Shown here one piece after another: positions 1,251-27,711 of a stretch of 45,102 bases of DNA. The notes beneath the pieces are model-generated. The model was not told where the DNA came from and made no database searches. It saw only the letters and a program-made list of their open reading frames with translations. The first letter of the stretch is position 1, and the number at the start of each line of letters is the position of its first letter. Origin of the DNA: Candidatus Nomurabacteria bacterium. Lineage in GTDB: Bacteria > Patescibacteriota > Minisyncoccia > Phycocordibacterales > UBA10002. Made by a program: the position numbers and the translations under genes. Where the stretch lies: contig CALQZP010000002.1 of assembly GCA_943349725.1 (NCBI GenBank), positions 1 through 45,102 of the forward strand, in the 5' to 3' direction.

Positions 1251-1976
1251 TTACTTTTTCTGGCGAGATTGTTTCCACTCGTCTATCTTGGCTTGGTGTC
1301 CGGAGAGGAGCACCTTCGGCACACGAAGTTTTTTTCCGTTGTATTCAAAAATCTCGGGGCGCGTGTAGACATCGGGGCTTGCGATACGGCTTTCCTCGCG
1401 TGAATTAAAATCGCCGAGCACGCCTTCCACTTGGCGTGCAATGACGTCTATCATAAGCATCGCGGGAAGTTCCCCACCGGTAAGTACGAACGGCCCGACG
1501 GACACCTCATCAACCTTTCCGCCAGAGGCGGATCCGCCTCTGGCGGAGAATGCTTTTTTCACCCGCGCGTCTATCCCCTCATACCGTCCGCAGATAATGA
1601 TGATGTCGGAGGACTTCGCATACTTCACTCCCGTTTCGTTCGTAAATTGTTTTCCGCTTGGCGTCAGCCACACAATAGGAGTTTTTAGTTTGAAGTTTTT
1701 AGTTTGAAGTTTTTTTGTGTTCTTATTTTTAACTGTAAACTCTAAACTTTTAACTGCTTCAGCTACCGCTTTGATAACCGGTTCGGCTTGAATGACCATC
1801 CCCGGTCCCCCGCCGTACGGTGCGCGGTCAATCCGCTTATGTTTATCTTCGGTGAAATCGCGGGGGTTGTAAAACTTCACTTTTATCTTTTTATCCTCAA
1901 TGGCGCGTTTCAAGATGGACTCCCCGAGGTAGGAGTCAAAAGCGTGCGGGAAGAGGGTTATGATGTGGAAAGTCAT
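1251..1976 (-). CDS. trmD: tRNA (guanine37-N1)-methyltransferase TrmD
   Basis: N-terminus FHIITLFPHAF, plus APYGGGPGMV and VLTGGELPAM, are typical TrmD motifs. The gene carries two repeat-derived in-frame insertions (1518-1547 and about 1678-1765). Confidence 0.93.
   Translation of the reverse strand: MTFHIITLFPHAFDSYLGESILKRAIEDKKIKVKFYNPRDFTEDKHKRIDRAPYGGGPGMVIQAEPVIKAVAEAVKSLEFTVKNKNTKKLQTKNFKLKTPIVWLTPSGKQFTNETGVKYAKSSDIIIICGRYEGIDARVKKAFSARGGSASGGKVDEVSVGPFVLTGGELPAMLMIDVIARQVEGVLGDFNSREESRIASPDVYTRPEIFEYNGKKLRVPKVLLSGHQAKIDEWKQSRQKK
1518..1547. repeat. 30-bp double-hairpin palindrome in-frame inside trmD
   Basis: TCCGCCAGAGGCGGA followed by TCCGCCTCTGGCGGA, a perfect palindrome that encodes ARGGSASGGK. 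The same hairpin pair occurs upstream of the GIY-YIG gene (26648-26676). Confidence 0.85.
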
Positions 1977-25381: not shown

Positions 25382-26179
25382 TTAGAATTGGTTTACAAGA
25401 CGCAAGTCTCCGTTATAAAACATACGGACGTCGGGGATGCCGGTTTTGAGCATTACGAGGCGGTCTATTCCACATCCGAACGCGAAACCGGAGTACTCCT
25501 TAGGGTCAATGCCAGAAGCGCGGAGGACATTGGGGTGCATGAGGCCTGAGCCGAGCACTTCAAGCCATTTCCCTTTCCATTTCATATCAACCTCGGCGGA
25601 GGGCTCGGTAAAGGCGAAGAAACTTGGGCGGAAGCGGATTTCAATTTCTGGTCCGAAAAACTTTTTCAAGAAGAACTCAAGTGTTCCCTTGAGGTGTGCA
25701 AGGCTTACATTTTTATCGATATATAGACCTTCAAGTTGAAAAAACTGCGCTTCGTGGGTGGCATCCGTTGCTTCGTTTCGGAACACCTTTCCGGGCACCA
25801 CGATTTTGTACGGGGGTTTGATGCCCAGCTTTACCTTGTTTTCAACATAACGTATCTGCACGGGAGAAGTATGCGTTCGGAGGACGGGTCTCTCGCTTCT
25901 TTCCCCGTTTTCTTCCTTTTGAATTTGGATATTAGAATTTGTTTCGGATTTCGGATTTCGGATTTCGGATTTCACATTTTTGGTCTTCACCCAAAAGGTA
26001 TCCTGCATATCCCTCGCAGGATGGTCGTTTGGGATATTGAGCGCGTCAAAGTTGTACCATTCGGTTTCCAGTTCGGGACCAACCGCAATCGCGAAGCCAA
26101 GCTCCTCAAAAATAGAGCGTATATCAAAAATAGCCTGTGAAATGGGGTGAATGTGTCCTTGTGCCTCTTTACTTTCCAT
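25382..26179 (-). CDS. pheS: Phenylalanyl-tRNA synthetase alpha subunit, short N-terminus
   Basis: NIPNDHPARDMQDTFWV, LRTHTSPVQIRY and GFAFGCGIDRLVML class II motifs. Confidence 0.92.
   Translation of the reverse strand: MESKEAQGHIHPISQAIFDIRSIFEELGFAIAVGPELETEWYNFDALNIPNDHPARDMQDTFWVKTKNVKSEIRNPKSETNSNIQIQKEENGERSERPVLRTHTSPVQIRYVENKVKLGIKPPYKIVVPGKVFRNEATDATHEAQFFQLEGLYIDKNVSLAHLKGTLEFFLKKFFGPEIEIRFRPSFFAFTEPSAEVDMKWKGKWLEVLGSGLMHPNVLRASGIDPKEYSGFAFGCGIDRLVMLKTGIPDVRMFYNGDLRLVNQF
25944..25971. repeat. 4 x 7-bp tandem repeat (tcggatt) in-frame in pheS
   Basis: Four exact heptamers within a low-complexity insertion that encodes KNVKSEIRNPKSETNSNIQIQKEE, between the conserved DTFWV and LRTHTS. 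Confidence 0.9.
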
Positions 26180-26240
26180 GCGCTCTATTTAAGCACAAAA
26201 GACCGCTCTTTGGAACGGGTTTAAACACCACCACCCCCAA

Positions 26241-26319
26241 ACCCCTCCTTAACTGAGGAGGGGAAGAAATCCCTCCTGCCAAAGACGGCAGTACTCCCTT
26301 TAGGAAAGGGAGAATTAAG
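26241..26319. repeat. Array of GC hairpin modules 3' of tRNA-Thr
   Basis: CCCTCCTTAACTGAGGAGGG, CTGCCAAAGACGGCAG and TACTCCCTTTAGGAAAGGGAGAATTAAGA. The last module recurs at 31983-32008 and 35109-35135. Confidence 0.8.
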
Positions 26320-26320
26320 A

Positions 26321-26396
26321 TGGAGCCGCCTCCCAGATTTGAACTGGGGACATCCACTTTACAAAAGTGGCGCTCTACCAACTGAGCTAAGGCGGC
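26321..26396 (-). tRNA. tRNA-Thr (anticodon UGU), CCA encoded
   Basis: The minus strand folds as a cloverleaf: acceptor GCCGCCT/AGGCGGC, D-arm GCTC/GAGC, anticodon stem CCACT/AGTGG with loop TTTGTAA, T-arm CCCAG-TTCAAAT-CTGGG, then T-CCA. Confidence 0.93.
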
Positions 26397-26632
26397 GTGA
26401 TGGTATCCAAGAACTTTCTTCCTTGTCCGGACTTCAGGAAGTGTTCCCGTTTGATTGCAGAAGTTTTATCATGGAACACTTCGTTATACAACAGGATAAA
26501 CGGTCCGTTTGATTTTGTAAATTTATTACAGCCCGTATTATGTTCCTGCAATCTCTCTTGCGGAGATTTAGAAGTATACCCCACATAACGTTTTTCGTTG
26601 CGCAAGCTTCTTAAAACATAGACAGAAAACAT
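26387..26632 (-). CDS. Small GIY-YIG nuclease family protein
   Basis: MFSVYVLRSLRNEKRYVGYTSKSPQERLQEHNTG...AIKREHFLKSG is the GIY-YIG/URI pattern. The stop TAG lies inside tRNA positions 8-10. Start is placed at ATG 26632. Confidence 0.8.
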   Translation of the reverse strand: MFSVYVLRSLRNEKRYVGYTSKSPQERLQEHNTGCNKFTKSNGPFILLYNEVFHDKTSAIKREHFLKSGQGRKFLDTITPP

Positions 26633-26694
26633 GTCGATGGTACTACCCCAGCCGGAGGCTGGTCCGCCTCCGGCGGAAACTGAGCTAAGGCGGC
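26397..26694 (-). mobile_element. Candidate GIY-YIG insertion cassette bounded by a 17-nt direct repeat of the tRNA-Thr 5' end
   Basis: AACTGAGCTAAGGCGGC occurs at 26380-26396 and at 26678-26694. The GC hairpins CCAGCCGGAGGCTGG and TCCGCCTCCGGCGGA lie at 26648-26676. Confidence 0.45.
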
Positions 26695-26715
26695 ACATTT
26701 CAACCGGCAACAATA

Positions 26716-27111
26716 CTACAACGAACCCGGGCGTGAAGAATCTCCCTCCGTCTTCTCAAGTACACTCTTGAGGTGTACCGACACGTCTACCGTGCCCTTA
26801 CGCACCTGCGTACGTCTTCCGCGGAGGTACCTATTGAGACGCAGAGCAAAGGCATGCATCAGTGCGTCAAAGAAAAGGTGTGCGTTATGGACGGTCGTCT
26901 TGGTCCAGACGGTTGAAACATGCACGGCGGTCGTCGCGCAGTCCTTGCAGGTCGCAGTTCCGCGCGTAAACAGGTCCTGCACCATGGGGTCACCTTTCGC
27001 GCGAAGGTGGCGAAGCGGCGTATTCGCGTTTCGGGTAAGCTCAAAGACCTTCAGACCAAAGAGGGTGAGGAGGCCAATGAGCGAAAATCCGAACAGGGTC
27101 ACGGACCACAT
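26716..27111 (-). CDS. Hypothetical membrane-anchored protein
   Basis: N-terminal hydrophobic helix WSVTLFGFSLIGLLTLFGL. The start lies 10 nt after the tsf stop. Confidence 0.5.
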   Translation of the reverse strand: MWSVTLFGFSLIGLLTLFGLKVFELTRNANTPLRHLRAKGDPMVQDLFTRGTATCKDCATTAVHVSTVWTKTTVHNAHLFFDALMHAFALRLNRYLRGRRTQVRKGTVDVSVHLKSVLEKTEGDSSRPGSL

Positions 27112-27120
27112 AGATATAGA

Positions 27121-27711
27121 TTATGAACGATTACTTGTTGAATACCGCGCGAAGCGGGCCACCTCAATCTTCTCACCAAATTTCTGTATGGCGTTTTCAA
27201 TAAGATTTTTGATGGTTTGGTCGGGATTCTTGATAAACGGCTGTTCAAGCAAAATCTTCTCGGCAAAATAAGAATTCATTTTCCCTTCAAGAATCTTCTC
27301 TTGCATCTCCTTCGGCTTTCCTTCCACTTCTTTCATAAGCACTTCTTTTGCTCGTTCAAGTGTTTCGACGCTGATATCCTCACGTCTGACGAACTCCGGC
27401 TTGGAAGCGGCGACATGCATTGCGATATCGTAGGCGAGCGCCCTAAAGGCTTCATTTCCCGAAACAAAATCGGTCTCGGAGGCAAGCTCAAGAAGTACGC
27501 CAACAGTTCCTCCGTGGTGAATATAGGATGCGACAGTACCCGCACCGAGAGTGCGGTCGGCTTTTTTGACGGCGGCGTCGGCTCCTTTTCGCTGGAGAAT
27601 AACTTTGGCCTTTTCTATATCGCCTTTTGACTCTTCAAGCGCTTTACGGCAGAGCATGACCGATACGCCAGTTTCGTCGCGCAATTTTTTGATTAATTCG
27701 GTAGTAACCAT
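27121..27711 (-). CDS. tsf: Elongation factor Ts (short form)
   Basis: UBA-like N-terminus LIKKLRDETGVSVMLCRKALEES, and ETDFVSGNEAF. Confidence 0.92.
   Translation of the reverse strand: MVTTELIKKLRDETGVSVMLCRKALEESKGDIEKAKVILQRKGADAAVKKADRTLGAGTVASYIHHGGTVGVLLELASETDFVSGNEAFRALAYDIAMHVAASKPEFVRREDISVETLERAKEVLMKEVEGKPKEMQEKILEGKMNSYFAEKILLEQPFIKNPDQTIKNLIENAIQKFGEKIEVARFARYSTSNRS

Follow-up and report, generated by a model that had tools for sequence, protein, structure and literature searches.

In fungal mitochondria, so-called mORFs couple a free-standing endonuclease gene to a replacement for part of the essential gene that they invade. They occur in atp6 of Allomyces macrogynus and in atp6, atp9, cox2 and nad3 of Glomus; the displaced native part persists as an untranslated remnant, the part brought in may derive from a foreign allele, and the endonuclease of the Glomus atp9 mORF is a GIY-YIG enzyme (PMC3630166). 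Fungal mitochondria also harbor double-hairpin elements (DHEs), which are short and GC-rich, are thought to be mobile and reside in intergenic regions as well as in rRNA genes (PMC10085805). A GIY-YIG nuclease in the vicinity of tRNA genes is documented for phage T4, where the site-specific endonuclease SegB is encoded in a tRNA gene cluster and is needed for the T4 tRNA region to be inherited preferentially when a related phage co-infects (PMC2330249). Here, we analyze a bacterial locus in which a tRNA gene, a GIY-YIG nuclease gene and a double hairpin are found together. Our literature search did not yield any description of such a tRNA-nuclease-hairpin arrangement in bacteria; most subscription journals lay outside this search and a prior description is possible.

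The locus is part of a 45,102-nt stretch of DNA from Candidatus Nomurabacteria, which we refer to as the window, and its features are compiled in Table 1. ARAGORN and Rfam find a single tRNA gene in the window, namely tRNA-Thr(UGU) at 26321-26396 on the minus strand, which is near-identical to the tRNA-Thr of relatives L081 to L084 described further below. According to the original prediction, the first 17 nt of this tRNA are duplicated. Exact copies of the 17-mer GCCGCCTTAGCTCAGTT are indeed present at 26380-26396 and 26678-26694, i.e., at a distance of 298 nt, and nowhere else in the 45 kb even when up to three mismatches are allowed (mean expectation in shuffled sequence: 0.10), which rules out that the 17-mer is merely a dispersed motif. 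The interval between the copies contains the expected 81-aa GIY-YIG ORF (Pfam E=3.9e-15) and, upstream of it, two adjacent 15-nt GC hairpins (TCCGCCGGAGGCGGA then CCAGCCTCCGGCTGG) with stems TCCGCC/GGCGGA and CCAGCC/GGCTGG enclosing the loops GGA and TCC, respectively. This 30-nt unit is termed HP30. What did not stand is the notion of a plain 17-nt repeat, because the tRNA sequence resumes past the hairpin with GGTAG. When HP30 is removed, the upstream piece matches tRNA-Thr 1-22 in 22 of 22 positions. The upstream repeat is a displaced copy of tRNA positions 1-22 into which exactly 30 nt have been inserted behind T17, and a simple 17-nt target-site duplication is rejected. Read in the sense of the tRNA, the order is flank, tRNA 1-17, HP30, GGTAG, a 10-nt spacer, the ORF and the intact tRNA. 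The final 10 nt of the ORF overlap tRNA-Thr, and its TAG stop codon at 26387-26389 coincides with tRNA positions 8-10, in agreement with the claim that the ORF terminates inside the tRNA.

Table 1 Features of the tRNA-Thr locus and of the solitary HP30 copy in the window.
Feature	Position	Strand	Basis
tRNA-Thr(UGU), intact, the invaded gene	26321..26396	-	ARAGORN; Rfam tRNA 70.5 bits
81-aa single-domain GIY-YIG ORF, UPF0213/YhbQ-like	26387..26632	-	ORF list, Pfam PF01541
GGTAG, copy of tRNA 18-22 (26643-26647), followed by 10-nt non-conserved spacer before ATG	26633..26647	-	sequence
HP30, 30-nt double hairpin, inserted precisely at the 17/18 junction of the displaced tRNA piece	26648..26677	-	
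Displaced copy of tRNA-Thr 1-17, where the tRNA 5' end lay ancestrally	26678..26694	-	exact repeat; native flank precedes
Native upstream flank GTAGTATTGTTGCCGGTTGAAATGT	26695..26719	-	comparison with L081-L083
Solo HP30, perfect 30-nt palindrome in trmD (ORF 1251-1976, minus strand)	1518..1547	.	

An Rfam search of positions 25900 to 27200 at permissive thresholds returned the tRNA only, with neither an intron nor a known regulatory RNA, so that the ORF does not qualify as part of a group I intron. Searching the locus for promoters and terminators revealed one weak promoter-like site within the ORF and one terminator downstream, and no promoter for the locus was identified. A 108-aa ORF starting at TTG and running through the hairpins was rejected as a real gene, as every homologue starts with MF.VYVL. 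The spacer before the ATG (TACCATCGAC) bears some resemblance to the 3' end of the ORF (GATACCATCAC); this likeness was not found at other loci and is therefore treated as chance.

With the mitochondrial mORFs, the window shares the combination of a remnant (tRNA 1-22), an ORF and an intact tRNA gene, and the same holds for 46 of 55 scored loci elsewhere. It differs from them in that the target is a bacterial tRNA gene of which the 5' end is duplicated, which mirrors the mitochondrial arrangement. Further differences are the enzyme of about 80 aa, which lacks a DNA-binding domain and receives its stop from the tRNA, and the hairpin residing in the displaced piece. SegB, on the other hand, is a phage gene, and in the abstract describing it neither a partial tRNA duplication nor a hairpin element is mentioned (PMC2330249).

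The uninterrupted state of the site, for which related genomes were to be inspected, was indeed found. With the neighboring Tsf protein as the query, a metagenome scan yielded 80 loci, among which the gene order tsf, small ORF, tRNA-Thr(UGU) is conserved; nearly all of them are without a GIY-YIG gene. In L081, L082 and L083, the Tsf proteins of which are 92-94% identical to that of the window, the flank GTAGTATTGTTGTCGGTTACAATT directly abuts an intact tRNA-Thr (GCCGCC...) and there is no ORF. Some 60 loci of more distant relatives lack the ORF as well. In the window, the homologous flank GTAGTATTGTTGCCGGTTGAAATGT abuts the 17-nt fragment instead of an intact tRNA. As the same flank is joined to the intact tRNA in the ORF-free relatives, the window lineage carries a 298-bp insertion, and since it is the native flank that abuts the fragment, the latter shows where the 5' end of the tRNA was located ancestrally. 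Presence and absence at one and the same site is thus observed among close relatives, as required for a free-standing homing endonuclease gene. The site is clean in the more distant relatives L085, L086 and L088, where a TTGACA...TATACT promoter immediately precedes the tRNA. The same site in L091 (78% Tsf identity) is occupied by a decayed cassette, in which the fragment is mutated, the hairpin degenerate and the ORF truncated. Relics are also present upstream in L081-L083, where GCCGCCTTA, a 38-nt GC hairpin and GACTCAG occur without an ORF, and in L084, where a 13-nt stretch repeating the beginning of the tRNA lies about 95 nt in front of it. As read from present-day sequences, the loci L091, L081-L083 and L084 suggest that cassettes have repeatedly been gained, have decayed and have been lost at the tRNA-Thr site. 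The idea of an insertion that regenerates the tRNA is therefore supported by the ORF-free relatives but needs to be modified in two respects: a variable displaced 5' piece carrying a hairpin takes the place of a simple target-site duplication, and at some loci an imported allele provides the intact tRNA. An integrase-driven tRNA island was rejected, because a recombinase is missing, the 298-bp insert contains nothing but the 81-aa ORF and it is the 5' and not the 3' end of the tRNA that is duplicated. The locus does not fulfill the definition of a classical transposon or IS element either, since the duplicated length varies and the hairpin is one-sided and inserted without duplication.

The arrangement is not confined to tRNA-Thr. 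We examined 80 genome loci with homologues 58-73% identical to the window protein, bearing in mind that counts across these loci are not phylogenetically independent. In eight cases the contig stops within 300 nt of the ORF and is uninformative as to a downstream tRNA. All 72 informative loci have a tRNA on the same strand directly downstream of the ORF: at a distance of up to 60 nt in 55 of the 80 loci, at 72-167 nt in five, and as an intron-split tRNA-Asn(GUU) in twelve, nine of which reached the Rfam threshold for a group I intron and three of which were recognised by eye. In these twelve loci the ORF mostly lies upstream of the intron; the Rfam match overlaps the ORF in L026 and L043. Nine tRNA types are hit, namely Asn, Ala, Val (with two anticodons), Ile, Thr, Met, Phe, Lys and Pro. 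In 29 loci the ORF ends on a TAG that occupies tRNA positions 8-10 or lies one base off. The check suggested at the outset, namely whether homologues elsewhere are accompanied by a partial duplicate of their tRNA together with the same hairpins, turned out positive for the 46 loci already mentioned, out of 55 that could be scored: an upstream tRNA fragment begins at positions 1-3, and the fragments are identical to their cognate tRNA in 1051 of 1076 nt. The length of the displaced piece varies, with fragment ends (b) between position 11 and position 55. The fragments are interrupted by at least one hairpin unit after tRNA position 8, 12/13, 17 or 28/29, and the cognate tRNA continues after the hairpin just as it does in the window. 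The points of interruption after T8, T12, T17 and T28 share the motif AGYT↓. That the upstream fragment represents exon 1 of an intron-split tRNA was rejected, as this could fit some of the tRNA-Asn loci only. Among the proteins, the nearest neighbor shares the tRNA type in 44 of 63 cases (chance fraction 0.34); judged by this measure, protein lineages track the tRNA type, with occasional switches of target from Ala to Phe, from Ile to Met and from Asn to Pro.

Several loci bear signs of mobility. Perfect tandem units, a sign of recent activity, were observed in L009 and L037, with 294 of 294 and 364 of 364 nt identical, and in both the tandem period equals the distance between the two copies of tRNA 1-c. 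In five further loci (L007, L040, L058, L066, L070), the intact tRNA is closely followed by remains of the same tRNA that are interrupted by hairpins. Except in L070, these remains stem from a different allele, and three alleles are found in L058. Remains of a different allele beside an intact tRNA imply that the intact tRNA can be an import by which the resident copy was displaced. In L007, L019, L029, L040, L058 and L066, the acceptor stem or the T arm of the upstream fragment deviates from that of the intact tRNA, the difference residing in the acceptor arm in L019 and L029; in the window, both copies are identical in 22 of 22 positions. The perfect tandem units, the decay of some copies and the displacement of foreign tRNA alleles suggest that homing is still going on, as far as this can be deduced from comparison of loci.

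In principle, the structure could also have arisen without any contribution of the nuclease, if a circle of about 300 bp consisting of tRNA 1-b, hairpin and ORF were integrated and excised by homologous or site-specific recombination of the host across the short 1-c repeat in the manner proposed by Campbell. A single crossover in 1-c would yield exactly the observed structure and perfect tandem units would be expected as well. However, the cassette is devoid of a recombinase, a homology of 8-29 nt is very short, and a non-replicating 300-bp circle has no obvious route between cells, which renders this explanation improbable. An even weaker case can be made for a host gene, i.e., a housekeeping or repair GIY-YIG protein co-transcribed with tRNAs, with the partial tRNA copies resulting from replication slippage at hairpins. 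Such a gene would be in accordance with its constant position in tRNA operons and with the strong purifying selection documented below. It would not be expected to be absent from the same locus in the closest relatives, to occupy nine different tRNA types, to leave decayed copies and relics, to occur in tandem or to be accompanied by foreign tRNA alleles, nor would contigs be expected to break at it as often as they do. We consider this explanation very improbable.

The protein encoded by the ORF matches Pfam GIY-YIG (PF01541) with 56.4 bits at a cutoff of 22.6 over residues 2-68 of 81. No second Pfam domain and no DNA-binding module were found in the 81-aa protein, which is a catalytic domain alone and thus lacks the separate sequence-recognition domain usual for homing endonucleases. 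Seg proteins are larger and possess DNA-binding regions. In an alignment of 26 homologous sequences, Y5, Y16, R27, H31 and E63 are invariant, such that the complete catalytic set (GIY Tyr, YIG Tyr, Arg, His and Glu) is present in the 81-aa ORF as well as in the homologues. We take these residues to be the equivalents of I-TevI Y6, Y17, R27, H31 and E75. Where dS is unsaturated, the median dN/dS for the ORF family amounts to 0.14, and by this estimate the ORF is under purifying selection. For the window ORF itself no value is given, since comparison with its best relatives runs into saturation of dS. Purifying selection of such strength might also reflect a use of the protein by the host. In total, 160 homologues were collected; the best 120 of these share 60-76% identity with the window protein and originate mostly from Patescibacteria/CPR sources. 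Viral contigs yielded only four distant relatives, which makes a phage origin unlikely, and neither NCBIfam nor PHROGs contains a family matching the window ORF. The nearest solved relatives by sequence are the UPF0213 proteins 1YWL and 1ZG2 (E=9e-9 and 2e-7, respectively). These UPF0213/YhbQ-like proteins have the same single-domain size as the window protein. Their PDB entries are labelled hypothetical, and no linkage to mobility or tRNA is recorded for them in the searchable literature.

HP30 is not restricted to the cassette. Within the window, pairs of 15-nt GC hairpins are present at 26648-26677 and at 1518-1547 only (shuffled sequence contains 0.24 such hairpins), and the predicted kinship of the two proved correct: the palindrome in trmD belongs to the same 30-nt family and constitutes an exact in-frame insert of ten codons, visible as ten additional residues (SARGGSASGG) against solved TrmD. 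Both copies are predicted to fold stably (-13.1 kcal/mol, z=-3.9 at the tRNA; -17.5 kcal/mol, z=-6.7 in trmD). In L051 and L066, HP30 likewise resides in frame in long ORFs, where it reads SAKGGSAPGG and PARGGSAFGG, so that the peptide form in proteins can be written as (S/P)A(K/R)GGSAxGG. Across the related loci, 85 isolated exact copies define stems YCMGCC/GGCKGR, a first loop RRA and a second loop TYY, the stems being conserved over the loops. Insertion is precise, proceeds without target duplication and follows AGYT, with T at position -1 in 75 and Y at position -2 in 83 of the 85 copies. HP30 is a small site-specific insertion of its own, which also lands in frame in protein genes. As a short GC-rich two-hairpin unit with many copies and an insertion in trmD, it fits the description of a double-hairpin or miniature palindromic element. 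Its bond with the nuclease is evident from its distribution. In 406 kb of cassette loci we counted 212 such hairpins, 157 of them no more than 200 nt upstream of a GIY-YIG start, and 427 kb of cassette-free relatives contained eight single terminator-like hairpins and no double hairpin at all. On this positional evidence, the nuclease is indeed linked to a dispersed family of palindromes.

HP30 resembles the mitochondrial DHEs in its size of 30 nt, in the higher conservation of stems than of loops, in its stacking into multiples and in its insertion into genes. It is distinguished from them by its occurrence in bacteria (CPR), its preference for AGYT↓, its coupling to a nuclease gene and its in-frame positions in proteins. 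Comparable elements are also the GC clusters of yeast mitochondria and the palindromic elements of Rickettsia. To our knowledge, no enzyme has been established for the mobility of mitochondrial DHEs or GC clusters, and the hairpin-linked GIY-YIG protein is therefore a candidate to test.

These properties raise the question of which component is the primary one. HP30 itself could be the mobile element targeting AGYT↓, with the GIY-YIG protein serving it as a trans-acting nuclease as RAYT does for REP. This proposal takes account of the precise insertion without target duplication at several positions, sometimes with two to four units per fragment, of the occurrence of HP30 in either stem order, downstream of tRNAs and in frame in TrmD and the ORFs of L051 and L066, and of the finding that the stems of cassettes at different tRNAs are more conserved than the ORF. 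It meets the difficulty that GIY-YIG enzymes hydrolyze DNA; we know of no strand transfer by such enzymes. Nor does it explain why the ORF always abuts tRNA +1 and why the 5' part of the tRNA is duplicated. We regard it as rather doubtful, and the same applies to its corollary that dead tRNA fragments are neutral landing pads and that the ORF-tRNA arrangement arises separately. Note that primacy of the hairpin is compatible with homing and does not exclude it.

The probable explanation in our view is a minimal, free-standing, selfish homing cassette at tRNA genes that is accompanied by a mobile double hairpin; its cleavage activity is inferred. According to this homing model, the 81-aa nuclease would cut the uninvaded tRNA gene in its 5' third, and the likely cut sites, again by inference, are the positions of the hairpins after T8, T12, T17 or T28 (AGYT↓). 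The break would then be repaired by copying from the invaded allele. The layout that results consists of native flank, tRNA 1-c, HP30, a few tRNA bases, spacer, ORF and intact tRNA. The role of HP30 can only be surmised: located at the presumed break point, it may render the displaced fragment uncuttable, and it may shorten the direct repeat able to delete the cassette. The ORF has no stop codon of its own and, as we infer, no promoter either. It may be read from the tRNA transcript, such co-transcription being inferred only, and translation would terminate at the conserved U8-A9-G10. When RNase P cleaves at tRNA +1, the stop codon would be lost from the nuclease mRNA, and this putative loss may hold nuclease levels low.

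Homing of this kind faces objections. There is no biochemical evidence for cleavage, and target specificity is likewise deduced, with recognition of a tRNA gene by a single domain remaining unexplained. The intact tRNA beside the ORF keeps every candidate target, and self-immunity is unexplained as well. A simple version of homing, moreover, does not account for the acquisition of the correct 1-c piece when the tRNA type is switched.

A broader hypothesis, which we put forward only tentatively, merges nuclease and hairpin into a two-part system. The nuclease of about 80 aa would cut after AGYT, and HP30 would be copied into the breaks; together they would drive homing into many tRNAs, move tRNA alleles among CPR species and seed ten-residue inserts in proteins. 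It is conceivable, with the same reservation, that the nuclease of this two-part system is directed by structure or by a motif and that a system of this kind has not yet been described.

A selfish element inside CPR/Patescibacteria tRNA genes that regenerates the tRNA would represent a new host group and a new target. The cassette comprises about 300 bp with an enzyme of 80 aa and borrows its stop codon from the host gene, as it probably does its promoter. We know of few homing elements this small. Cassettes move tRNA alleles horizontally and break metagenome assemblies, and the pseudo-tRNA fragments and chimeric tRNA loci associated with them can mislead annotation. A nuclease of 80 aa with a defined DNA target would be of interest to tool developers.

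The same layout is adopted by more distant GIY-YIG subfamilies (35-41% identity), which are associated with other GC hairpins. In L055, two GIY-YIG subfamilies are stacked at a single tRNA.

The tRNA-Thr locus carries probable traces of cassettes also in relatives from which the nuclease gene is absent. In the three closest tsf-tRNA-Thr loci (L081-L083), a remnant lies about 100-150 nt upstream of tRNA-Thr and consists of GCCGCCTTA, a 38-nt GC hairpin (CCCGCCCG...CGGGCGGG) and GACTCAG. In L084, a further tsf-tRNA-Thr locus, the tRNA start is copied over 13 nt, about 95 nt upstream of tRNA-Thr. None of the upstream remnants in L081-L083 and L084 contains an ORF. These cassette-free relatives are not pristine, and their remnants look like scars of earlier cassettes. 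A decayed cassette occupies the very site of the window cassette in L091 (78% Tsf identity), where the displaced copy of the tRNA 5' end is mutated (GTCGCCTTAGCTCCGTT), the hairpin is broken and only residues 47-78 remain of the GIY-YIG ORF. No tRNA was detected in L091 between this decayed cassette and the contig end.

At one locus (L055), a single tRNA-Asn carries two different, stacked GIY-YIG subfamilies. The two differ in hairpin type, and a separate tRNA 5' fragment belongs to each, an arrangement that points to successive, nested invasions. A distant GIY-YIG (39% identity) resides downstream of tsf in L124 and L125. GCCACCT, a 37-nt GC hairpin and TAGAGCTC precede it, and on its other side lies a tandem repeat, about 86 nt in length, with a tRNA-like start (GCCACCTTAGCTGTCTTGGTAGGCCCGCTCAG...).

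In 12 CPR loci (L023, L026, L032, L043, L047, L052, L057, L061, L062, L063, L069 and L079), an intron interrupts the anticodon loop of a tRNA-Asn(GUU) downstream of the GIY-YIG ORF. These introns measure roughly 200-350 nt, and nine of the 12 meet the Rfam group I threshold. The intron of L079 seems to contain an HNH-type ORF of its own.

Two of the loci encoding homologues of the window protein contain the whole cassette unit in tandem (294 nt in L009, 364 nt in L037). The copies are 100% identical, reflecting either very recent duplication or copy-number variation within the population. Eight of the 80 contigs with such homologues (L001, L006, L010, L017, L064, L068 and two others) end less than 300 nt past the nuclease ORF, and in the majority of these the distance is below 100 nt, which suggests that short-read assemblies are broken by cassette, hairpin or tRNA repeats.

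The 30-nt double hairpin HP30 also resides inside protein genes. In all three in-frame copies it is read as a decapeptide rich in Gly, Ser and Ala. This is SARGGSASGG in TrmD of the window, and the two long ORFs of L051 and L066 show SAKGGSAPGG and PARGGSAFGG. Compared with a solved TrmD, it forms an insert of exactly 10 residues in the window protein.

Coordinates of cassette-related and neighboring features
Feature	Locus	Position	ORF strand	Remark
HP30 in trmD ORF (1251-1976)	window	1518-1547	minus	in-frame
HP30 in long ORF	L051	1024-1053		in-frame
HP30 in long ORF	L066	1248-1277		in-frame
TTTCGGA-unit short tandem repeat in pheS ORF (25382-26179)	window	25942-25972	minus	
Terminator-like site	window	26203-26218		single site within tRNA-Thr/pheS interval
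Short hairpins, tRNA-Thr to pheS	window	26200-26320		
Decayed cassette	L091	1150-1300		
Stacked GIY-YIG subfamilies	L055	2500-3240		
Tandem cassette units	L009	2940-3527		
Tandem cassette units	L037	2880-3607		
Distant GIY-YIG	L124	5040-5526		

The several short hairpins that follow one another between tRNA-Thr and pheS, among them CTCCCTTTCCTAAAGGGAG, CTGCCGTCTTTGGCAG and CCCCTCCTCAGTTAAGGAGGGG, are unrelated to HP30 and partly conserved in L081. The repeat within pheS comprises two 17-nt copies, 14 nt apart, and coincides with a low-complexity protein stretch (...KSEIRNPKSETNSN...).
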